Assembly (NCBI GenBank): GCA_040754455.1
Contig: JBFMCP010000032.1
Location: forward strand, 1 to 38,814
DNA: 38,814 nucleotides
Source of the DNA: Nitrospirota bacterium
GTDB taxonomy: Bacteria; Nitrospirota; Thermodesulfovibrionia; Thermodesulfovibrionales; Dissulfurispiraceae
Direction of reading: 5' to 3'
Positions 5,980 to 23,302 of the stretch are shown piece by piece. Both the position numbers and the translations under genes were made by a program. How positions within the stretch are numbered: the first letter of the stretch is position 1; every line of letters starts with the position of its first letter. Under the pieces are notes generated by a model. It had not been told where the DNA came from. It did not search any database and saw only the letters and a list, made by a program, of their open reading frames with translations.

Positions 5980-7116
5980 ATGCTGAGCACCAATGTCCTC
6001 ATTATAGGCGGCGGGCCTGCCGGAGCTACCGCCGCACGGTTTCTTGCTGAAAACGGCATCGAAACCATTCTTCTGGAAAGAGACCTGTCGTATAAGAAGC
6101 CCTGCGGTGGCGGCATTCCCTCCTCTGCATTCGACGAGCTGGATATCCCCCGCAGCATCATCAAAAAAGAGATCCGGAAGATCAGAATTATCTCTCCCGG
6201 CGGAGATGATTTCGAGATCGCATTGAAAGGCGGCTGCATTGCTATCACGGACAGGGGAGACCTCGACTCTGCTCTCAGGGCAATGGCCCACGGCAGAGGG
6301 GCCGAACTGATCGAGGGGACCTTCGTCAGGTTTACCGCAACGGGGAGGAAAGTCATCTCTCTCATAAGGAACAGAGTAACAAACGAAGAGACGACGATAC
6401 AGTCCGATTACGTTATTGCCGCTGATGGTATCACCTCACGGGCGGGCTCCCAGCTCAAGGCGCCGTCACCCCATCATATCTTTACAATAAGCGCACATAT
6501 ACCACCCGCCGGTTTCGACTGCTGCGAATTCTGGTTCGGCTCAGGTCACGCCTCCCGCTTTTATTCCTGGGTCTTTCCCTCCTCGGAGTTCGCTTCGATA
6601 GGAACGGGCAGTAGCCGTTCCCGTGAGCTTACCCGGCTGCTGGATCGCTTCATCAGGAGGCGGTTTAATAGCTCTCTGAGGAATTTTGCTGCAGATACTC
6701 GTATGGAAAAACCGAGGGCCTTTAAAATACCAGTGTGGAATAAAACGCTTTTTAATAGAGATAATGTCCTCTTTGCCGGCGATACAGCGGGCACGGTCAT
6801 GCCCGTAACCTATGAAGGCATTTACTACGCCATGAAGTCAGGTGAATTCGCTGCGCAGGCGCTCATCGAAAAAAAACCTGAAAATTACAAACGGCTCTGG
6901 AACAGCAGATTTCGCACACGTTTTCTTCTCATGAGCAAAATCAACCACCTTCTGTTCAAGGACGATGAGACCATCGAGAAATGGGTGCAGCTCCACAAAA
7001 AGCCCGAGGTGCAGGAGATCGCGATGAAATTATGGCTCGAGAAGAAAAAGGGGAACGCGTACCTCCTTCCGTATGTAAATGTCTTCAAGCATATTTTGAA
7101 ATTCAAGTTGACCTGA
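5980..7116 (+). CDS. Geranylgeranyl reductase family FAD oxidoreductase (ChlP/BchP-like)
   Basis: GGGPAG FAD motif, KPCGGGIP, IAADG, FYSWVFP, EGIYYAMKSG. Confidence 0.88.
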   Translation: MLSTNVLIIGGGPAGATAARFLAENGIETILLERDLSYKKPCGGGIPSSAFDELDIPRSIIKKEIRKIRIISPGGDDFEIALKGGCIAITDRGDLDSALRAMAHGRGAELIEGTFVRFTATGRKVISLIRNRVTNEETTIQSDYVIAADGITSRAGSQLKAPSPHHIFTISAHIPPAGFDCCEFWFGSGHASRFYSWVFPSSEFASIGTGSSRSRELTRLLDRFIRRRFNSSLRNFAADTRMEKPRAFKIPVWNKTLFNRDNVLFAGDTAGTVMPVTYEGIYYAMKSGEFAAQALIEKKPENYKRLWNSRFRTRFLLMSKINHLLFKDDETIEKWVQLHKKPEVQEIAMKLWLEKKKGNAYLLPYVNVFKHILKFKLT

Positions 7117-7980: not shown

Positions 7981-9186
7981 CTAACGCTCTAATGTCACCC
8001 GCTTCGTCACCTTGTGGATCGGCACCTTATTTTCAGGCACCTGGAGCTCATAGTTAAGGTCGACGGTGACATCGACGGTCGTGACGCCCTCGGGAAGCTT
8101 GATCTGGAAGGTCTCGTCCTTCGATGCGTACGGTTGAAGCGCTGTGTCCCTTACATACGATGCCTTGTTCTGGGCGCCGTAGACCATCTTCGAATCCAGG
8201 CAGGTCGTTGCCTGGGTATGATAATGCCGCTCATCCTTAAAAATTTCTTTACCGTCCGGCGTCTTTGCGGTCACTTCCATGACCACTCTGTTGTGGGACG
8301 GTCAACCGTCGGGGATTCTGTGTCCGCCGGTATGGCTGATCTTCGTATTCACCACCACCATCGGGTGAAGGTCTTTCGCCTTTCTCAGCCAGGAATAGCC
8401 CAGCGTCTGCACGTCGAGAGTCACTGCTTTCTTGAGCAGCTCAGAGGAGTGTGCTTTATCATCCCAGTTCGGGGCGATGAGGTGGTCGGCCTTGCCTTTG
8501 ACCTTGGGCATATGGCATTCCTGGCACGACTGGAACCCTCCGTGGGAGAGATAATTGTGCTGGTAGCTCCCGTAGAGCGTCGCGCACTGCACCGGGTTCT
8601 CAAATTCGAAATTGGGCCCCGTTCCATGGCACTGGCCGCAGAAGATGGACTGGTCCATCACCGTACTCTTCTTCACTTTTGTAAAGACTTTATCCGGATG
8701 CGAGGGAATATCCTTCGTACTGTAGATCACATCCTTTTCGGGCTTGCCGAGCTGCATCCGGTGGATAATCGCCTTCTCGTTGTGGCAGACGAGACAGGTA
8801 ATCTGAAGTTTGCCGACCTTCCCCTTATCCCCGGCCAGCAACGCCTCGGTCAACTCGACGGCAAAAGAATCCTCGGCAGAAGTTAATGCCTGCGGAAGAT
8901 GGCACTTGAAGCAAGGGAAGTTCTTCATTGTCGCCTGCTTCGGGTCCTTCGGAGCAAAGGGGCTGCCCTTCACCACAGGAACAAGCATCAGGCCGCCAGC
9001 GACCCCCATGAGCGGGCGGGCGTGGTGCGACTTCTCCCATTGAGCATAGATTTCCGCATGGCAGGCCTTGCACCGAGACGAATCGTACATCTTCGCCAGT
9101 TCATCGATCGACTTCGCCTTCTCCGCGTTCACCGCCAAAGGCAAAGCGATGAGAAGGACAGCAAGAATCACAACAACTGCTCTCAT
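7981..9186 (-). CDS. Periplasmic pentaheme c-type cytochrome selenoprotein (ExtKL/MccSep-like), 401 aa with Sec at codon 295
   Basis: Signal peptide and five CxxCH motifs (CKACH, CFKCH, CLVCH, CGQCH, CQECH). ORF 8302-9186 ends HRIPDG-TGA and continues in frame (PSHNR) into ORF 7981-8286. A SECIS-like hairpin directly follows the TGA. Confidence 0.88.
8267..8286 (-). promoter_or_regulatory. Bacterial SECIS-like hairpin
   Basis: mRNA GUGGUCAU-GGAA-GUGACCGC forms an 8-bp stem (two G-U pairs) with a G-initiated loop that begins after 23 nt downstream of the UGA at 8304-8302. Confidence 0.78.
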
Positions 9187-14120: not shown

Positions 14121-14298
14121 ATCATGAGCATACCGAAAAAACGAGGGGGAATGCAAAATTTTCTCATCATAGATAAATGAATGAGGCGTTTGGGACATAT
14201 AATAACCACCACCAGAGGCGGGAACGGATTTCATATCTTATTGTTAACTGTTTTTATTATGTTTTTTATCAAGAATAGTTTAATAGTTTAGAAATCTC

Positions 14299-14328
14299 TT
14301 GACAATCCATCGTATAATCGTATATAAA
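14299..14328 (+). promoter_or_regulatory. Promoter of the ArsR operon, probably giving a leaderless transcript
   Basis: TTGACA (14299-14304), 18 nt, TATAAA (14323-14328). A tandem ATCGTATA repeat overlaps the spacer and -10, and no SD precedes the ATGs at 14330/14336. Confidence 0.55.
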
Positions 14329-14329
14329 T

Positions 14330-14758
14330 ATGTTTATGCAAGAAATGCTCGAAATTCTCAAGCTCCTCTCCGATGAATCGCGGCTCAGGATCCTCATGCT
14401 TCTGGAGAAAAAGGAACTCTGTGTCTGCCAGATCATGGGTGTCCTCAATATTTCACAGCCGCTGGTTTCCCGGAACCTCTCCCTCCTGGCAAAAGCCGGC
14501 TTTCTCAAAGACCGGAGGGAAGGCAAGTTGATGTTCTACAGCGTCAAAAAAAAGCTTCCCCTGAAGCACAATCTCGTCCTGTCGGTCTTGAAAGAGACTT
14601 TAAAGGATGATAAAGTTGCATTGAAAGATGCGGCTTCGCTGAAGGACTGCGAGGAGTTCCAGAAAATTACCGGCAAGTGCGGGATGGAGACGTTCCGCGC
14701 ATACATAGAGCATAAAGAGAAAATGAAAAGGAGACAGAAAAGTGTTGTTGGAATTTAA
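14330..14758 (+). CDS. ArsR/SmtB-family transcriptional regulator
   Basis: LSDESRLRIL, ELCVC, SQPLVSRNL, RREGK..FY, plus two further C-terminal Cys. The true start may be 14336. Confidence 0.93.
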   Translation: MFMQEMLEILKLLSDESRLRILMLLEKKELCVCQIMGVLNISQPLVSRNLSLLAKAGFLKDRREGKLMFYSVKKKLPLKHNLVLSVLKETLKDDKVALKDAASLKDCEEFQKITGKCGMETFRAYIEHKEKMKRRQKSVVGI

Positions 14759-15410
14759 AAAGAAAAGGAGCAGGCTCCAGGCCTATACATGGTATGGACT
14801 CCCCCTGGTCATCATCGGCGGATGGATATACCCGAAGCTCGGATACTTTCTCCTTGCCTGCATGTTCGGCGCCATCGGCATTGCCTTTTACAAAGGCAGG
14901 GCATGGTGTGACTGGATGTGCCCGCGCGGAAGTTTCTACGACCTCTTCTTGCAGAAGATCAGTGCACAGAAAACCATACCACCGCTCTTCAGAAAAAAGA
15001 GCTTCCGCATCTTCGTGCTCGCGACAATGTTGAGCGTTCTCGGCTCCCAGATCTATTTTGCCTGGCCTGATATAGACGGTATAGGCATGGCGATGGTCAA
15101 GCTGCTCACCGTTACGACCATCATAGGCATCATCCTCGGCGCACTCTACCAGCAGCGCGTTTGGTGCCATATCTGTCCCATGGGCACGCTGGGCAACTAT
15201 ATCGCCGACGGCAAAAAGCCGCTCATGATCGACAACTCCTGCATCAGCTGCAAGACATGCTCAAAAGCCTGCCCCATGCAGCTGGCACCCTATCGGTTCA
15301 AAGAGAAGGGCATGATGGGCGACAATGACTGCATCAAGTGCTCCTCCTGTGTCGCCGTCTGCCCGAAAAAGGCGCTTGTTTTCGACGGGTCGATAAAGAA
15401 GGCCGCATAA
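14742..15410 (+). CDS. Membrane 4Fe-4S-binding protein (NapH/MauN-like polyferredoxin)
   Basis: TM helices, CDWMCP and CHICP motifs, two CxxCxxCxxxCP motifs; GTG start after AAGGAG. Confidence 0.88.
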   Translation: MLLEFKKKRSRLQAYTWYGLPLVIIGGWIYPKLGYFLLACMFGAIGIAFYKGRAWCDWMCPRGSFYDLFLQKISAQKTIPPLFRKKSFRIFVLATMLSVLGSQIYFAWPDIDGIGMAMVKLLTVTTIIGIILGALYQQRVWCHICPMGTLGNYIADGKKPLMIDNSCISCKTCSKACPMQLAPYRFKEKGMMGDNDCIKCSSCVAVCPKKALVFDGSIKKAA

Positions 15411-15434
15411 AGAGGTCAGGAGGTTGGTTGAGCG

Positions 15435-16772
15435 ATGATGAAATACGGAATAGTTGCCCTCATGGTGGTCGCCCTGTTTTCAGGCACCGGGTCCTGCGCT
15501 GAAAACAAAGTTACGCTTGCCGAAGCGATCAAGATCGCCCTTGAACGCAACCATGAAATAAAGGCACATCAGCATGCACTCTCGGCACAGTACCAGGACA
15601 TCGGTATCGCCCGGAGCTTTCTGCTTCCGAAAGTAATCTTTGAAGAGCGGTTTCTGCGCACGAATAACCCCACCTATTCTTTTATGGCAAAGCTGAACCA
15701 GGAGCGATTTACGACCGACGATTTTGCCATTGGCTCTCTGAATAACCCGAAGCCTCTGAGCGATTTTCAGACATCCCTCTCCTTTGAGCAACTGCTTTTT
15801 GTCCCCAAGGCAAACGTCGGCCTCGGAATGGCAAAGCTCGAATACGCTGCGCAGGATAATGATTACCGGAGGAAAAGAGAAGAGATTGCTTTTAAAGTAT
15901 CACGGACGTTCCTCATGGTAACTACCGCACAGGAATATGTGAAAGCCGCCCGTCAAACCGTTGAGGATACCAAAGAGCACTTGAGGATAGCGGAATTGAG
16001 GTACGATTCAGGCCTCGGTCTCTATTCCGATGTCTTACGGGCATCGACAGCAGTCACTGATGCAGAGCAGCGACTGGTTAGCGCTCAAAAAAATCTGGAC
16101 GTGGCAAAAAGGGCATTGGGCCTGCTGCTCGGCATGACCGAAGCAGTTGAAGCAGCTGAAGAGACGGTCATGGTACCCCTCATGGACCTCTCCTACTACA
16201 ATAATGCCTCACTCTCGAGAAACGATGTCCGGGCACTCACGGCCCGGTTTGAGAATACAAAGAAGAGCGTGAAACTCGCTGAGGCGGGATACCTTCCCAC
16301 AGTAGGCATCGGCGGCACCTACCAGCTCAACGATCACCGGAAGCCGATCGGATCAGAGGGCGACAGCTGGCAGCTTATGGCATTTCTGAGATGGGAACTC
16401 TTCGACGGAACGAAACGGGAACATGAACGGGCCAAGGCGAAATCACGGGTCGCCGAGACCCAGGAATATCTGGAAGGGCTCAGGGATGCAGTTTCATTCC
16501 AGGTCTATGAATCCTATCTCGGCGTGAACGAGGCAAAAAAAAACGCCGAACTCTCTCAATCAGCGCTCAAAACCGCTGAAGAGGGGAGGCGGCTGGTGCA
16601 GGTGCGTTACGAGAATTCTTTATCTCCACTGATCGACCTTCTGGATGCGCAGACAAGCCTCGACCACGCACGGGCCAGCGCCGTTGCACGGGAGAATGAG
16701 TATACTACCGCTGTTCTCAATCTGAGCTACCAAAGCGGAACGATTCTCAAAGATCTGAAGATAGAGGAATGA
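15435..16772 (+). CDS. TolC-family outer membrane efflux protein
   Basis: TLAEAIKIALERN, duplicated OEP repeats (RYDSGL, RYENSL, DLLDAQ). Confidence 0.92.
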   Translation: MMKYGIVALMVVALFSGTGSCAENKVTLAEAIKIALERNHEIKAHQHALSAQYQDIGIARSFLLPKVIFEERFLRTNNPTYSFMAKLNQERFTTDDFAIGSLNNPKPLSDFQTSLSFEQLLFVPKANVGLGMAKLEYAAQDNDYRRKREEIAFKVSRTFLMVTTAQEYVKAARQTVEDTKEHLRIAELRYDSGLGLYSDVLRASTAVTDAEQRLVSAQKNLDVAKRALGLLLGMTEAVEAAEETVMVPLMDLSYYNNASLSRNDVRALTARFENTKKSVKLAEAGYLPTVGIGGTYQLNDHRKPIGSEGDSWQLMAFLRWELFDGTKREHERAKAKSRVAETQEYLEGLRDAVSFQVYESYLGVNEAKKNAELSQSALKTAEEGRRLVQVRYENSLSPLIDLLDAQTSLDHARASAVARENEYTTAVLNLSYQSGTILKDLKIEE

Positions 16773-16783
16773 TGGAGGAAAGA

Positions 16784-18007
16784 ATGAAAAGGAGTCAGAA
16801 TTCAGAATTCAGAATTCAGAATTCAAAAGCCGTCCCCGACGAAAAACGTCAGAGAGCGCCGCTTCCCTTAAAAGCTCATTCCAGGAATTCAAAAAGTCTT
16901 CTCTTTTTTGTTTTATTCTGGCTTCTGACTTCTGTGATGTCCGGTTGTTCGGACAAGATCAAGCCCGGTAGTGCAGAAGTAAAGCGGCCGGTCGTCACCG
17001 GCATTACCGTCACCGAAGTCAACCCGGCACTGATCGACGATTATTACGAAACATCGGGAACAATCAAGGCAAGAACCATAAGCATGGTCGCCAGCAGGGT
17101 AATGGGGACCGTCACCACGATCAAGGTGCGGGAAGGCGACAGGGTCCGTGCAGGGCAGGTGCTGATGACCATCGACGACAGGGACAGCGCGCAGCGGGTC
17201 CGTGCTGCTGAAAAGGCCCTCGAGGCGGCGGAGCAGCAGCGGTCGCTTACCGATATCACCTACCAGCGATATAAAAAGCTGTATGACGGCAGGGCAGTAT
17301 CCCGGCAGGAGCTCGATCAGATCGAAACCGGGAAAAAGGTCGCCGAGAGCGAGTACGAACGGGCAAAAGCGATGCTCGCCGAAATGCGGATCAACCACGG
17401 CTTTTCGCGGATCACTGCCCCGACATCGGGTGTGGTGACCGAGAAAAGAATAGAAACCGGCAGCATGGCGGTGCCGGGGACGCCGCTCCTCGTTGTCGAA
17501 GACACTTCCTCATATCAACTTGAGGCACACCTCGACGAGAGCATCCTGAACAGGATCAGCATGGGAATGCCCGTTACGGTCATCATCGAATCGATAGGAA
17601 AACAGATCGAAGGCAGGGTTGTGGAAATCGTCCCCTCTGTTGATCCTATGTCACGGACCTTTCTGGTGAAAATAAGTGTTGCGGGACCGCTCCTGAAAAC
17701 AGGACTCTATGCAAAAGCACGGGTACCAGTGGGAAAAAAAGAGGCGATAGTCGTGCCTGAGCGCGCCGTGGTCGAAAAAGGGCAGCTCACCGGCGTCTAT
17801 GTCGTCGATTCGCAGGGAATCATTTCCTACCGGCTGGTGCGATTAGGCAGGAATTATAACGGCGTTACTGAGATCGTATCCGGATTGAATCCCCGTGACA
17901 GCGTCATCATCGATGGTACGAACAGGGCAATCGACGGCGGCATCGCACGCAATGTTCAGCGCATAGCCTCCGGGAACACTGCGCCTTCCGCTGCACCGCA
18001 GAGGTAA
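16784..18007 (+). CDS. RND efflux periplasmic adaptor (MFP) lipoprotein
   Basis: MSGC lipobox, V.EGD.V.AGQ.L lipoyl half-motifs, ITAPTSGVV, VDPMSRTF. ATG at 16784 follows GGAGG (alternative start 16769). Confidence 0.92.
   Translation: MKRSQNSEFRIQNSKAVPDEKRQRAPLPLKAHSRNSKSLLFFVLFWLLTSVMSGCSDKIKPGSAEVKRPVVTGITVTEVNPALIDDYYETSGTIKARTISMVASRVMGTVTTIKVREGDRVRAGQVLMTIDDRDSAQRVRAAEKALEAAEQQRSLTDITYQRYKKLYDGRAVSRQELDQIETGKKVAESEYERAKAMLAEMRINHGFSRITAPTSGVVTEKRIETGSMAVPGTPLLVVEDTSSYQLEAHLDESILNRISMGMPVTVIIESIGKQIEGRVVEIVPSVDPMSRTFLVKISVAGPLLKTGLYAKARVPVGKKEAIVVPERAVVEKGQLTGVYVVDSQGIISYRLVRLGRNYNGVTEIVSGLNPRDSVIIDGTNRAIDGGIARNVQRIASGNTAPSAAPQR
16795..16934. repeat. Heptamer tandem repeat (TCAGAAT x4) with an inverted degenerate counterpart, inside the 5' end of the MFP gene
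   Basis: TCAGAAT x4 at 16795-16822; ATTCTG GCTTCTG ACTTCTG at 16915-16934. Confidence 0.8.
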
Positions 18008-18013
18008 TCATCG

Positions 18014-21000
18014 ATGAGCGTTGTCGGCATCGCAGGCAAAATAGCAAAGACGTTCATCAAATCCAAGCTCACCCCGCTGATCGTCATCGCATCGCTCATT
18101 CTCGGCGTATTTGCCGTCATCGTTACCCCCCGTGAAGAGGAGCCGCAGATCGTCGTGCCGATGATCGATGTGATGGTCGCCTATCCCGGCGCCTCAGCAA
18201 AAGAGGTGGAGGAACGGGTCACGAAGCCGATGGAGAAGTTCCTCTGGGAGATCAAGGGCGTAGAGTATGTTTACACCATCTCCAAACCCGGCATGAGCAT
18301 GGCGATCGTCAGGTTCTATGTCGGCGAGGACATGGAGGACAGCATCGTCAAGCTCTACAACAAACTGATGTCCCATTACGATAGGATACCTCCCGGCGTG
18401 TCCCAGCCGCTGGTGCGCCCGAAGTCGATCGATGATGTTCCCATACTGACGTTTACTCTCTGGAGTCAGCGCTACAACGGGTATGAGCTGAGGAGAATTG
18501 CGACCGAGGTCTGTGATGAATTGAAAAAAGACCAGGACATCTCGGAGTTTACGGTAATGGGGGGCCAGAAACGCCAGGTCCGCATCGATATCGACCCCGT
18601 GCGCCTCAGGGCTTATTCTCTGGCTCCCCTGCAGATCGCAGGAATGCTGCAAAAGGCCAATTTCATGCTGCCGTCAGGCGCCTTCTTCAACAAGAACAAG
18701 GAATTTCTCGTCGAGACCGGCGCATTCCTCAAAAACGCCCAGGAAGTAGGAAATGTGGTTGTCGGCATCTCAAACAGCAGGCCTGTCTACCTGAGGGATG
18801 TGGCAAAGATCAGCGACGGTCCCGAAGAGCCGTCGAATTATGTGTTCATGGGCTTTGGCCCTGCCTCACTAAAAAGCAGCGAGTATGCCTCTCCGCAAAA
18901 CAGCACCGGACAGTATGAGGCGGTTACCATCGCCATCGCAAAGAAGAAGGGGACGAATGCCACCCACATCGCCGAGAGAACGCTGAAAAAGATCGAAGCC
19001 ATCAAAGGGACTATTATCCCCTCAGGAGTCGAGATAACCACAACGCGGAACTACGGCGATACGGCAAAGGAGAAGTCCGATGAGCTCCTCGAGCACATGC
19101 TCATCGCCGCCATATCAGTAACTATTCTTATCGCCCTTGCCCTCGGCTGGCGGGAATCCATTGTCGTTGCCGTCGCAGTGCCCGTCACCCTTGCGCTTAC
19201 TATCCTTGTAAATTACCTGTACGGCTACACGCTGAACAGGGTGACGCTCTTCGCGTTGATCTTTTCGATCGGCATTCTTGTCGATGACGCCATTGTGGTG
19301 GTCGAGAATATCCACCGCCACTTCAAGATGGGCAGCATCGATACCGAAACAGCGGTGAAGGCGGTCGATGAAGTGGGCAATCCGACCATATTGGCGACCT
19401 TCACGGTCATCGCCGCGCTGCTGCCCATGGCATTTGTCTCAGGACTTATGGGTCCTTACATGCGTCCCATCCCTGTCGGCGCCTCTGCGGCAATGCTGCT
19501 TTCACTGCTCATCGCCTTCATCATCAGTCCGTGGTTGAGCTACATCGTCTTAAAGGGAACAAAGAAGGAGGAGGGCGACAACAACGCCAAGGATGAAAGC
19601 AAAATCATCGGTGCGCTGAACCACCTCTATGAAAAAAATCTCAGGGGTCTCCTTGAGAGCAAGAGGAAGCGGCTCATGGGGCTCCTGCTCGTTCTTCTGC
19701 TCCTGGGAGGAGCAATGGCCCTGGTGCCGTTGAAGCTCGTTACCGTAAAGATGCTCCCTTTTGATAACAAAAGCGAGCTGCAGGTCATTATCGATATGCC
19801 CGAGGGGACAACGCTCGAGGAGACAGCGGCATTGACCCGCCAGGTCGGCGACTATCTCACAACCGTTCCTGAGGTTACCAACTATCAATCGTACGTCGGA
19901 ACTGCAGCTCCCTTTAACTTCAACGGCCTCGTCCGCCACTATTTCATGCGGTCGGGGAGCAATTCGGCGGATATCCAGGTCAATTTCGTCGCGAAAGATA
20001 AACGGAAGGCCCAGAGCCACGATATCGCCAAGCGACTGAGATCCGAGATCAAGAAGATCGGCGACCGTTACCATGCACGCATCAAGGTGGTCGAAATTCC
20101 TCCGGGTCCTCCGGTGCTGAGCACACTCGTTGCCGAGGTCTACGGGCCGGACTTTACGAGACAGATCGAGATAGCGCAGCAGATCAAGGAGGTATTCGAA
20201 AAAACCGGCGGTGTTGTTGACGTCGACTGGTACGTCGAAGACGATCAGAAAAAATTCTGGTTCGATGTCGACAAGGAAAAAGCCGCCTATAACGGGATAA
20301 GTACCGATACCGTTGCGCAGACCCTCAGGACAGCCATCGGCGGCAGTAGTGCCGGACTGGCCCATGTGGAAAAAGACAAGGAGCCGGTGGAGCTGTTTAT
20401 GCGGATGCCGTTCTCCGAGCGAACGAGTGTTGCGGACCTGCAAGAGGTAACGATTCCCTCGAGCTCAGGCGCTCTTGTCCCCCTCTCCGAGCTGGTCACC
20501 ATGAAGGAGCGCATCGAGGACAAGACCATCTACCGGAAGAATCTCAAACGGGTGGTCTATGTGACCGGCGATGTGGCGGGCACTGAGGAGAGCCCGGTCT
20601 ATGCCATTCTGAAAATGAAGGAGATGATCAAGAACCTCAGGCTGCCCGAGGGATACGAGCTAAAGCAATACTCAGCGGTCCAGCCGTGGCTCGAAGATAA
20701 ATATTCGATGAAGTGGGATGGCGAGTGGCATATCACTTATGAGGTCTTCAGGGATCTCGGTATCGCCTTCGCAGCGGTGCTGATATTGATTTACATAATG
20801 GTCGTCGGCTGGTTCAGGTCCTTCATCATCCCGATCGTTATTATGGCGCCGATTCCCCTGTCGCTCGTCGGCATCCTGCCGGGGCATGCAATCATGGGAG
20901 CCTTCTTTACCGCAACCTCGATGATCGGATTCATTGCGGGAGCAGGCATTGTCGTGAGGAATTCCATTATTCTCGTTGATTTCATAGAGCTCAAGCTCTC

Positions 21001-21298
21001 CGAAGGCATGGAGCTGAAGGAGGCGGTGGTGCAGGCAGGTATCATCCGGTTCAGGCCCATGTTGCTGACTGCGGCGGCAGTCGTGGTAGGTTCATCGGTC
21101 ATACTGTTCGATCCCATATTCCAGGGTATGGCGATCTCCCTGATGGCCGGAGAGGTCGCATCAACGCTGCTCTCGCGGACCATGGTGCCCGTTCTCTATT
21201 ACATATACAAAGATTGGGAAATAAACAAGAAACGGAAAGAAGAGGAACGCGCTCAAACGGCTGCTTACTGCGGCATCAGCCGATCAGAGCAGCCCTGA
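18014..21298 (+). CDS. RND efflux permease (AcrB/CusA superfamily)
   Basis: 1094 aa; [34 protein letters not shown]. Confidence 0.96.
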
Positions 21299-21333
21299 TC
21301 GCCGCTGCTGATGCATTTCTAAAGGAGGATGTC

Positions 21334-21561
21334 ATGTTATACATAGCGAAAACCGACAGCTGGTATCTGGAAAGAATCATTTGGCTTATAGCAGGAGTAT
21401 TCACGCTCGCAAGCGCCGTATTGGCATGGGTGCATAGCCCCTACTGGCTGATTCTGACCGCGCTGGTCGGCATCAACCTTCTTATATTCGCTTTGACGGG
21501 ATTCTGTCTCATGGCAAACATCTTGTATAAACTGGGAGCAAAACCGAGACTACAAAAATAA
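21334..21561 (+). CDS. DUF2892 (YgaP-like) small membrane protein
   Basis: ATG at 21334 after AAGGAGG; ERIIWLIAG...ALVGINL...ALTGFC-MANIL.KLG. Confidence 0.85.
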   Translation: MLYIAKTDSWYLERIIWLIAGVFTLASAVLAWVHSPYWLILTALVGINLLIFALTGFCLMANILYKLGAKPRLQK

Positions 21562-21598
21562 AAGAATTCTATCTTCTATTTACATCAAAGGAGGAAGA

Positions 21599-21784
21599 AT
21601 GGCAACGGTCGAGTACATCTGTCTTGCGTGCGGAAACCATTTTACGGCAGCCGCATGCACCAGCAGCAACAAGGACGAGCAGCAGTGCCCTCAATGCAGA
21701 AGCACCACTATTTACAAACTGAATCCCCAAAACCTCTTCGGTTTCTTTTCAGGAGGGGGCTGAAACCCGAGCGGCTGCTGCTAG
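21599..21784 (+). CDS. FmdB-family zinc-ribbon protein with probable Sec at codon 55 (missing from the ORF track)
   Basis: AAGGAGG RBS; MATVEYICLACGNHF...CPQCRS...FSGGG-TGA(21761-21763)-NPSGCC-TAG. 54 aa if TGA terminates, 61 aa with Sec. The CDS itself is well supported; Sec readthrough is less certain. Confidence 0.75.
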
Positions 21785-21808
21785 AGACCGGTTCGGTCGA
21801 ACAAAAAT

Positions 21809-21855
21809 AAAAGAGAGCCGGTGCAATGCGTGTCCATTGCACCGGCTCTCTTTTT
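21809..21855 (+). terminator. Intrinsic, probably bidirectional, terminator of the ArsR-RND operon
   Basis: AAAAGAGAGCCGGTGCAATG, loop CGTGTC, CATTGCACCGGCTCTCTTTTT. Confidence 0.9.
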
Positions 21856-21958: not shown

Positions 21959-23302
21959 ATGTGGGGCAGCATAAATGATGTTATCGTCAGATTTTTATGG
22001 GAGAGAGATCTCTCATCCTACAGCAGGCACGGCGTTTTTGCCGTCAAACTGCTGCGGCTGTTGTATGTGGCGCTGCAGGAGATCTCGGGAGGGCAGCTCA
22101 CGCTGAGGGCGATGAGCCTCGTCTACACCACTCTGCTCTCGCTGGCGCCGCTCATTGCCGTGAGCTTTTCGGTGCTCAAGGCCTTCGGTGTACATAACCA
22201 GGTACGTCCCCTGCTTTTCAACTTCTTTGAGCCGATCGGCCCGAAAGGTGAAGAGCTCACCAACCGCATCATCGGGTTCGTCGAGAACATCAATGTCGGC
22301 GTCCTCGGTACGATAGGTCTTGTCACCTTGATCTATACCGTTGTGACGATGATCCAGAAGGTCGAGGAATCATTCAATTATATATGGAAAGTAAACAGGC
22401 CGCGCGGTTTCCTGCGGCGGTTCAGCGATTACCTGAGCGTGCTGCTCATCGGTCCTGTCCTCATCTTCTCTGCAATGGGCATCACCGCCTCCATCATGAG
22501 CACGCACCTCGTGCAAAAAATCATAGCCCTCGAGCCCTTCGGGACCGCCGTATACATTGCCGGGGCTATCGTTCCCTATTTTATTGTCTGCGCCGCCTTC
22601 ACCTTCATCTATATTTTTATTCCCAATGTCAAAGTGCAGCTCAGGTCGGCGCTCACCGGGGGCGTCTTTGCAGGCATCCTCTGGGAGGCATCAGGGTGGG
22701 CCTTTGCCTCCTTTGTTGCAACCTCCACGAGGTATCCCGCAATCTATTCGGGGTTTGCCATTGTCATTCTCTTTATGATGTGGATTTACCTGAGCTGGCT
22801 CATTCTCCTTACCGGTGCGGCGGTCTCTTTTTATCATCAGTATCCGCAATTGCTCACCCGCCGAAGGGAGCCGTTCATCATGAGCAGCAGGCTCAGAGAG
22901 CGGATATCCCTGCTGATTATGTTCCATATCGGTTACCACTTTTACCATAACCTCCCGCCCTGGACATTCGAGGGATTGATGGGACACATCAAACTTCCCT
23001 TCGAGCCTATCCTGGAAATACTCACGCTGCTGAAAGGAAAATCGCTGGTCTTCGAGACCGGCGACGACCCGCCCCTTTATCTCCCTGCCCGTGATATCGA
23101 AACCATACTGCTCAAAGAGATTCTGGATGCGGTCCGGACCGCCGGCGAAGACTCATATCATCCTTCCGAGGGATGCATCTCCGAATCCGAGATCGACCGT
23201 ACCCTCAAGCGAATAGATGAAGCGATCGACAGCGCACTCGGCGAGAGCACCTTGAAGTCCGTTGTCCTTGCCTGTAACGCCGTGAATCAAAAACAGACGT
23301 AG
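21959..23302 (+). CDS. YihY/BrkB-family inner membrane protein with a C-terminal winged-helix-like extension
   Basis: RAMSLVYTTLLSLAP, IYSGFA, WIYLSWLILLTGA; soluble C-terminal region with YLPAR. Confidence 0.88.
   Translation: MWGSINDVIVRFLWERDLSSYSRHGVFAVKLLRLLYVALQEISGGQLTLRAMSLVYTTLLSLAPLIAVSFSVLKAFGVHNQVRPLLFNFFEPIGPKGEELTNRIIGFVENINVGVLGTIGLVTLIYTVVTMIQKVEESFNYIWKVNRPRGFLRRFSDYLSVLLIGPVLIFSAMGITASIMSTHLVQKIIALEPFGTAVYIAGAIVPYFIVCAAFTFIYIFIPNVKVQLRSALTGGVFAGILWEASGWAFASFVATSTRYPAIYSGFAIVILFMMWIYLSWLILLTGAAVSFYHQYPQLLTRRREPFIMSSRLRERISLLIMFHIGYHFYHNLPPWTFEGLMGHIKLPFEPILEILTLLKGKSLVFETGDDPPLYLPARDIETILLKEILDAVRTAGEDSYHPSEGCISESEIDRTLKRIDEAIDSALGESTLKSVVLACNAVNQKQT

Follow-up and report, generated by a model that had tools for sequence, protein, structure and literature searches.

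Introduction

Whether an in-frame TGA triplet close to the end of a small zinc-ribbon gene stops translation or is decoded as selenocysteine (Sec, written U in protein sequences) is the question raised by a 38,814-nucleotide (nt) stretch of DNA from a Nitrospirota bacterium (contig JBFMCP010000032.1, positions 1 to 38,814; this whole stretch is called the window here). The gene encodes a mini-protein of the FmdB type and is located on the forward strand. An earlier reading made from the letters of this DNA (hereafter the sequence-only reading) had described a ribosome-binding site AAGGAGG, an ATG at 21599, the zinc-ribbon motifs CLAC...CPQC and, at the 3' end, GGA GGG GGC TGA AAC CCG AGC GGC TGC TGC TAG, and all of these elements are present in the window where they were placed. 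The gene probably encodes a 61-residue selenoprotein with the C-terminal tail U-N-P-S-G-C-C, and a hairpin located just past its stop codon would act as the selenocysteine insertion sequence (SECIS) element. The proposal of a Sec codon, already made in the sequence-only reading, is supported by two related loci in which the TGA, an N-P-x-x-C tail, a stop codon and a hairpin are found again, and by the use of Sec in the host organism.

The gene and its product

With Sec at codon 55, the full frame of the zinc-ribbon mini-protein (21599..21784, + strand) comprises 61 residues followed by TAG. Its ribosome-binding site (21588..21594, + strand) has the end of the GGAGG 4 nt before the ATG, and a GGAGG is also present 5' of the start codon in the two related loci, L001 from a Nitrospirae metagenome-assembled genome (MAG) and L002 from an uncultured Nitrospiraceae MAG. 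The product of the open reading frame (ORF), MATVEYICLACGNHF...CPQC...LNPQNLFGFFSGGG, is followed by the TGA at 21761-21763. This gene, which had been described as uncalled, is already contained in databases, albeit in a truncated form of only 54 amino acids that ends at 21763. Close to its N-terminus and separated by some 20 residues, the protein contains two CxxC knuckles, as is characteristic of FmdB proteins, namely C8-L-A-C11 (21620..21631, + strand) and C30-P-Q-C33 (21686..21697, + strand). All 31 aligned sequences have the four cysteines C8, C11, C30 and C33 in common, and in the window gene both knuckles are all-Cys, being encoded by TGT or TGC codons. The remainder of the frame consists of a Gly-Gly-Gly hinge (G52-G54, GGA GGG GGC, 21752..21760, + strand), the proposed Sec-55 codon (21761..21763, + strand) and the tail N56-P57-S58-G59-C60-C61 with its stop (21764..21784, + strand), of which AAC CCG AGC GGC TGC TGC occupies 21764-21781 and TAG 21782-21784.

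The assignment of this protein to the family of FmdB proteins (TIGR02605, CxxC_CxxC_SSSS; PF09723) holds in part. The window protein shares with the family its small size, the M-x3-(E/D)-Y-x-C-x2-C-G-x2-F start, the second CPxC knuckle and a glycine/serine linker leading into a Cys-containing tail, and it scores above the cutoff of the NCBIfam model TIGR02605 (FmdB family zinc ribbon; 35.2 bits, cutoff 31.3). However, it stays below that of the Pfam model PF09723 (Zn_ribbon_8; 31.8 bits, cutoff 34.4), and its relatives L001 (22.8 bits), L002 (16.7 bits), P0037 and P0004, all at 16.7-22.8 bits, lie under the TIGR02605 cutoff of 31.3, the subfamily as a whole scoring at or below the family cutoffs. 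It further differs from the family by the signature (I/V)CL(A/S)CG ... KLNP..LFGF-GGG and by a TGA at the position where the tail starts. The claim that FmdB proteins often carry Gly/Cys-rich tails is borne out by L004, L005 and P0046, other FmdB proteins in which a Cys-rich tail follows a glycine/serine linker, and such a tail can thus be regarded as the norm of the family.

The AlphaFold2 model, obtained with 31 aligned sequences, consists of a ribbon core of three strands, a short helix that spans residues 44-49 and a tail that is disordered; its mean pLDDT (predicted local distance difference test) is a moderate 67.9, with block means of 78-84 in the core strands and values below 50 for residues 51-55. 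An extra cysteine of the window protein, C20 (21656-21658), is located in the loop between the knuckles, and one or two extra loop cysteines are present in many relatives (e.g., 'CGC' in P0004 and P0006 or 'DC' in P0037, P0039 and P0042) and in neither L001 nor L002. These inter-knuckle cysteines could be partners for the Sec or Cys of the tail. A double-glycine leader followed by the core of a ribosomally synthesised and post-translationally modified peptide was considered and rejected, as maturases and peptidase-type exporters are absent and a zinc ribbon, being folded, would seem an odd leader.

The features of the window taken alone are within chance, and a non-random signal emerges only when related loci are compared. 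The RNA 3' of the UGA has no better fold than its shuffled versions (z -0.57, -0.35 and -1.10), and six open codons before the next in-frame stop are ordinary in this DNA. No SECIS match near the gene was obtained in an Rfam scan, which is uninformative because the positive control, the SECIS of the ExtKL cytochrome gene of the window (see below), was missed too; the Rfam matches all lie on or overlap the terminator hairpin, except for one weak small nucleolar RNA match upstream.

A common end in the database relatives

A HMMER scan of 1.84 billion representative proteins returned 31 matches at E <=0.001, 30 of which were taken, P0014, a multi-domain protein of 820 amino acids, being left out. 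Almost all of these relatives (28/30) consist of 47-82 residues and end exactly in a glycine-rich run aligned to G52-G54; only P0027 and P0030, FmdB proteins of more distant relationship, run on past the glycine run. A profile search in a set of 5.8 billion proteins gave 21 matches, 11 of them new, and nine of these also end in the glycine run, the exceptions being P0045 and P0046. In total, 37 of the 41 relatives share this end point, without a single case of a sense codon leading into a tail, as is expected if gene callers stop at a common UGA. On its own, this shared protein end is compatible with a natural Gly3 terminus as well as with a common UGA, and DNA is needed to discriminate between the two.

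A natural terminus is the core of the principal alternative, according to which translation ends at the TGA in the ordinary way to give a protein of 54 residues with a free Gly-Gly-Gly C-terminus, and the conserved stretch described below is a non-coding 3' RNA element (a hairpin pair with a role in stability, processing or protein binding). We consider this unlikely, with some weight on its side: all database entries have the short form, including the two that bear an NCBI name, which in both cases is 'hypothetical protein' (one from a Thermodesulfovibrionales MAG and one from a Nitrospirae MAG). However, a protein with a conserved Gly3 C-terminus would forgo the Cys-rich tail that is typical of the FmdB family. 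Several other searches did not extend the set of relatives. Word-indexed protein searches with P0027 and with the read-through protein recovered only P0027 itself and the window's own 54-residue entry, respectively, and are uninformative; tblastn against plasmids gave no match, and tblastn of all proteins of the analysis against the window and the loci revealed no second copy. The look-alikes in the ESM Atlas, all <0.9, were unrelated small zinc proteins and were not taken as evidence.

Conservation beyond the TGA

At the DNA level, species-representative genomes were scanned with the pattern Y[IV]CL[ASD]CG[NS]x[FY], which derives from a nine-sequence alignment and covers that spelling of the knuckle only. 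The scan produced 33 pattern matches, 10 confirmed relatives and 6 distinct loci. L001 and L002 belong to the same subfamily as the window gene, and L003-L006 encode other zinc-ribbon proteins, mostly of the FmdB type, that were matched over the ribbon only and have unrelated C-termini. In the window, L001 and L002 the TGA is aligned, so that the in-frame UGA is conserved in 3/3 subfamily genes with DNA, a small sample, and the sequence at the TGA site (GGCTGAAACCC) is identical in the three. Both L001 and L002 read ...GGC GGC TGA AAC CCC nnn nnn TGC TGA, and the same hairpin (GACCGGUnnGGUC) is found directly 3' of their tails, which are U-N-P-W-G-C, stop TGA and GACCGGTCAGGTC in L001 and U-N-P-F-S-C, stop TGA and GACCGGTCCGGTC in L002. 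The codons after the first TGA are thus AAC in all three loci, then CCG, CCC and CCC, which are synonymous, two variable codons, TGC in all three and a stop. This pattern looks coding-like, though it extends over 5-6 codons only. The findings named in the sequence-only reading as contrary to a Sec codon were homologues with a TAA or TAG after the GGG and a lack of conservation after the UGA, and neither is seen in L001 or L002.

Compared with these two loci, the window contains a 4-nt insertion (GCTA, 21779-21782), which adds C61, turns the stop from TGA into TAG and leaves the hairpin intact. The tail conserved across the three loci is therefore U-N-P-x-x-C, and of the Sec-x4-Cys-Cys tail originally described the Sec and the first cysteine are retained, the second being a product of the window-only insertion. 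An ordinary stop does not account for the synonymous change in the proline codon, nor for the stop kept right after the Cys despite the insertion, and it leaves unexplained the TGA in all three genes, which is mildly unexpected for an ordinary stop because just 6 of 32 other ORF ends in a tabulation of the window have this triplet.

The distribution of invariant positions among the aligned DNA columns of the window, L001 and L002 points in the same direction. Upstream of the start codon 3/32 columns are invariant, and in the gene body 61/156 (39%), the first zinc knuckle being the most conserved stretch of the latter with 18/24 (75%); from the last glycine codons to the end of the hairpin (21755-21798) the figure is 31/44 (70%), and after the hairpin it drops to 12/77 (16%). 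Pairwise DNA identities in the gene body, in 21752-21798 and after the hairpin are 53%, 74% and 32% for window/L001, 44%, 77% and 27% for window/L002, and 70%, 86% and 39% for L001/L002, respectively. The supposedly untranslated stretch is thus as constrained as the zinc knuckle, and this constraint stops exactly at the 3' side of the hairpin.

The recurrence of the TGA also bears on the idea that it arose by an error in sequencing or assembly, or from a Cys codon (TGC/TGT) by recent nonsense mutation, or that it encodes a standard amino acid. Being one base away from TGC, the triplet lends itself to the first two of these explanations, but the same TGA is present in two independent assemblies of other organisms. 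As for an altered code, TGA closes well-supported genes of the window (e.g., the RND permease gene, which ends at 21298, and the gene at 5980-7116) and is therefore a stop in this organism. This group of explanations is highly improbable.

The hairpin after the stop codon

The candidate apical hairpin of the SECIS, GACCG-GUU-CGGUC (21786..21798, + strand), is predicted to begin one base after the stop codon of the window gene, its stem starting 22 nt after the UGA and 27 nt separating the UGA from the loop G. Its core, GAGACCGGU..GGUC (GACCGGU..GGUC), is invariant in all three loci. The L001 sequence folds as GACC-GGUCA-GGUC with a 4-bp stem, and that of L002 as an 8-bp stem that takes in its stop codon and carries a GUC loop. 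Counting the U of the UGA as 1, the loop G-U of L001 and L002 is at nt 27-28, which matches the loop start G27 of the ExtKL SECIS of the window. Of the two folds envisaged in the sequence-only reading, the short GACCG/CGGUC hairpin is kept, whereas the outer stem CCGAGC/GUUCGG, which is the minimum-energy fold of the window, is not kept in L001 and L002. The second TGA of these loci directly adjoins the hairpin in L001 and lies within the stem in L002, too close to it for Sec decoding, which fits a true stop. Decoding of this TGA as a second Sec (aligned to Cys-61 of the window) was considered and rejected, since the frame would then continue for >30 codons without a stop and cross the terminator.

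E. coli SelB contacts a bulged U and the apical-loop G23/U24 of a 17-nt upper hairpin located 11 nt from the UGA, the G in the apical loop of this short hairpin being a conserved contact (PMC8659212), and the BSepDB paper shows, as a canonical SECIS example, a stem of 5 bp that carries a 3-nt loop with G in first place (PMC13326102). The operon terminator reported to follow the gene is present as a strong hairpin of some 20 bp that is preceded by a run of A and followed by a run of T (21809..21854; z -4.57), and it marks the operon end. With both runs, it could act in both directions; the next gene, BrkB/YihY-like and located at 21959-23302, shares the strand of the operon.

A number of observations weigh against Sec decoding at this locus, and some of them favor an ordinary stop. 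The hairpin is weak: the stems are short (4-8 bp), their energies unexceptional (z -0.35, -0.60 and -2.13 in the three loci), and there are no compensatory base-pair changes among the window, L001 and L002. Hairpins of this kind are also frequent by chance. A scan for a stem of >=5 bp with >=3 G-C pairs and a loop of 3-6 nt that has a G in its first two positions and starts 16-37 nt after the TGA, following bSECISearch, which accepts this UGA-to-loop distance, found a comparable G-loop hairpin after 115 of 1406 window TGA triplets (8.2%). A hairpin of this loosely defined kind follows the TGA of the window gene and that of L002, and L001 has one whose stem is 4 bp long. A Cys aligned to the Sec, the usual mark of a selenoprotein family, is present in none of the 41 database relatives, the nearest case being GGGC-Q-P at a loosely aligned, low-complexity spot of the distant FmdB protein P0027. 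The Cys-like position ascribed to the UGA, for which homologues with TGC or TGT were expected and none was found, is consequently based on the family architecture and not on a Cys/Sec pair. The DNA sample consists of three sequences from a single phylum, with L001 and L002 proteins that are 70% identical; no genes for the Sec machinery or tRNA-Sec are contained in the 38.8-kb window, where no tRNA genes were found; and the link to efflux genes, on which the proposed function rests, exists in two of the three loci. Moreover, the insertion displaces the loop G of the window to nt 31, compared with nt 27 in L001, L002 and ExtKL, and the window copy may for this reason decode poorly. An ordinary stop could in addition draw on RNAalifold, in whose fold the GCUGCU within the tail is paired to the glycine codons and a second small hairpin is formed, so that RNA constraint could explain part of the conservation, but the first of these helices is mismatched in two of the three sequences and shows no compensatory change.

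The displaced loop gives rise to a further explanation, in which the selenoprotein family is real and the window copy impaired, its UGA-55 mostly terminating translation to give a 54-residue product. We regard this as improbable. The spacing in the window would still be covered by the 16-37 nt range of bSECISearch, and an insertion that adds a Cys, is followed at once by TAG and leaves the hairpin intact resembles a tolerated variant rather than decay. What speaks for impairment is the insertion itself, which L001 and L002 lack, the loop position that these loci share with the ExtKL SECIS and the window copy does not, and the set distance of 11 nt at which the upper hairpin is found in E. coli (PMC8659212).

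Sec use and genomic context of the window

Sec decoding of UGA-55 finds support within the window in a second gene with an in-frame TGA, which indicates that the host decodes Sec and speaks indirectly for Sec machinery genes (selA, selB, selC and selD) in its genome. This gene (7981..9186, - strand; TGA at 8302-8304) encodes an ExtKL multiheme cytochrome selenoprotein and is recognized by NF040886 ('multiheme c-type cytochrome (seleno)protein ExtKL'; E 2.2e-138), which matches the read-through cytochrome with 461 bits against a cutoff of 250. Its SECIS has an 8-bp stem with a GGAA loop, begins 15 nt after the TGA and has its loop start at nt 27 (60-nt fold, z -5.07). ORF callers split the gene into 8302-9186 and 7981-8286, and its Sec motif is GGHRIPDG-U-PSHNR. 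ExtKL is thus a member of a known selenoprotein family in the same organism, served by the same SelB and with the loop start at the nucleotide found in L001 and L002; in contrast to the hairpin of the zinc-ribbon gene, its SECIS is stronger and lies inside the coding region.

The zinc-ribbon gene is the last of a tightly packed row of genes on the same strand that is read as one operon (14330..21784, + strand). This row comprises, all on the + strand, an ArsR/SmtB metalloregulator (14330-14758), a NapH-like 4Fe-4S membrane protein (14742-15410), a TolC-like outer-membrane protein (15435-16772), a HlyD-type adaptor (16769-18007), an AcrB-type resistance-nodulation-division (RND) permease (18014-21298) and, between the permease and the ribbon gene, a YgaP-like transmembrane protein (PF11127, E 2.6e-9; within 21214-21561). 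A promoter-like site (14289-14318) is located ahead of the regulator gene. The end of the ArsR/SmtB gene overlaps the NapH-like ferredoxin-type gene, which has two 4Fe-4S motifs and is an odd companion for RND efflux, and the listed TTG start of the YgaP-like gene overlaps the end of the RND gene, its true start being probably later. In L001, a HlyD adaptor and an RND permease (74% identical to that of the window) also precede the ribbon gene, with about 100 nt between permease and ribbon gene and no YgaP-like gene. The neighborhood of L002 differs, with a cyclic nucleotide (cNMP)/GAF regulator upstream and DUF2064, a VTT/DedA protein and a pyridine-nucleotide disulfide oxidoreductase downstream.

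Proposed mechanism

In the mechanism that we infer, residues 1-41 form a four-cysteine zinc ribbon of the FmdB type, which would be followed by the short helix at 44-49, the Gly3 hinge and a flexible seven-residue tail, Sec55-Asn-Pro-Ser-Gly-Cys60-Cys61, that reaches the C-terminus. UGA-55 would be decoded as Sec by SelB with Sec-tRNA(Sec), and SelB would be recruited by the small G-loop hairpin (21786-21798), which lies in the 3' untranslated region past the real stop. A stem that starts 22 nt after the UGA is expected to leave the hairpin outside the ribosome. The selenol/thiol tail may then work as a claw that binds soft metals or metalloids, or as a selenenylsulfide redox claw, tethered in either case to a structural zinc module, as a flexible arm with one or two thiols at a distance of four residues from a selenol would suit the chelation of thiophilic metals or metalloids or selenenylsulfide switching. 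The RND operon headed by an ArsR regulator points to the handling of a metal or metalloid, and from this neighborhood the role of the ribbon protein is probably to bind, sense or pass on a thiophilic substrate of the RND system that is made together with it under ArsR control.

A more specific version of the Sec reading is possible and put forward tentatively. In it, the zinc-ribbon proteins would form a Sec-only family of Nitrospirota without Cys orthologues, the SECIS would lie wholly outside the frame, and the tail would be a selenol/thiol ligand or relay that is cytoplasmic and dedicated to a thiophilic metal or metalloid, acting with the co-transcribed, ArsR-regulated RND exporter.

Comparison with known selenoprotein families

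Selenoproteins named 'Putative regulatory protein, FmdB family' have been predicted from two ocean-metagenome sequences (Zhang and Gladyshev, 2008, PMC2398784; PMC9312934; PMC13188914). The ocean proteins belong to the same broad domain family (COG2331/TIGR02605) and likewise have a predicted Sec, which in their case is located in a knuckle, given as CxxU (PMC2398784), U/CxxU (PMC9312934) or UxxU with two Sec (PMC13188914). In contrast, the knuckles of the window protein contain only Cys, and its Sec would be in the C-terminal tail. The two also differ in their Cys homologues, 807 of which are given for the ocean family in the 2008 table (PMC2398784), whereas none was found for the window subfamily. 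The dual CXXC motif small (seleno)protein NF041197 (OS_HP3 or 'hypothetical protein DW') is similarly small, with two CxxC motifs and one Sec, in the motif RxU or GxU (PMC13188914); its model did not match the window protein, L001, L002 or two further members of the subfamily, even at E up to 10.

A Sec near the carboxyl end is also found in the KCU-star, UXX-star and SaoC families, in which it is the last residue or has two residues after it (PMC13188914), and the C-terminal Cys-Cys of the window protein recalls the name of SaoC. However, the Sec considered here would be followed by six residues in the window and five in L001 and L002, within U-N-P-x-x-C, and the models NF033934, NF041114, NF041211 and NF040734 gave no match to members of the window subfamily. 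The 2026 review states as a rule that bacterial SECIS elements sit within coding regions (PMC13188914). For the '-star' families described there, a Sec at or near the last residue would place the SECIS at or past the stop too, and a 3'-untranslated position would therefore be unusual, not new in kind. Among the 119 families of Table 1 of this review, as accessible, no zinc-ribbon family with a C-terminal G-G-G-U tail is listed (PMC13188914), and the other selenoprotein models of NCBIfam release 20 did not match the five subfamily members. The literature on FmdB or zinc-ribbon selenoproteins yielded no description of such a protein, an earlier one being possible in supplements or in Haft 2023/2025, and zinc, FmdB and Nitrospir are absent from the text of the deep-Sep and BSepDB papers. 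Comparative evidence thus supports what would be a new Sec position and a new subfamily within the FmdB-type ribbons.

A different FmdB-type ribbon, encoded by L003 (4001-4177) in a Geomonas sp. MAG, ends in ...DCCTPKG-TGA-AGG-TTT-TAA and is followed by a CGCC-AGUUC-GGCG hairpin that starts 12 nt after the TGA. This end could be a Sec-x-x-stop tail in another lineage that uses Sec; the NCBIfam selenoprotein models gave no match to the L003 protein.

Implications

If the Sec reading is right, the zinc-ribbon gene would be a natural bacterial example of Sec recoding from the 3' untranslated region, with a SECIS located past the stop codon, and would add to the 119 selenoprotein families compiled in 2026 a subfamily with Sec at a position that is new for the FmdB fold. 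About 40 database entries would then end too early, at the Sec codon, without the only residues that are likely to be reactive. With Cys homologues apparently lacking, a family of this kind would probably be overlooked by methods that rely on Cys/Sec pairs. For the FmdB-type ribbons themselves, the link to an ArsR-controlled RND operon provides a testable entry to their function.

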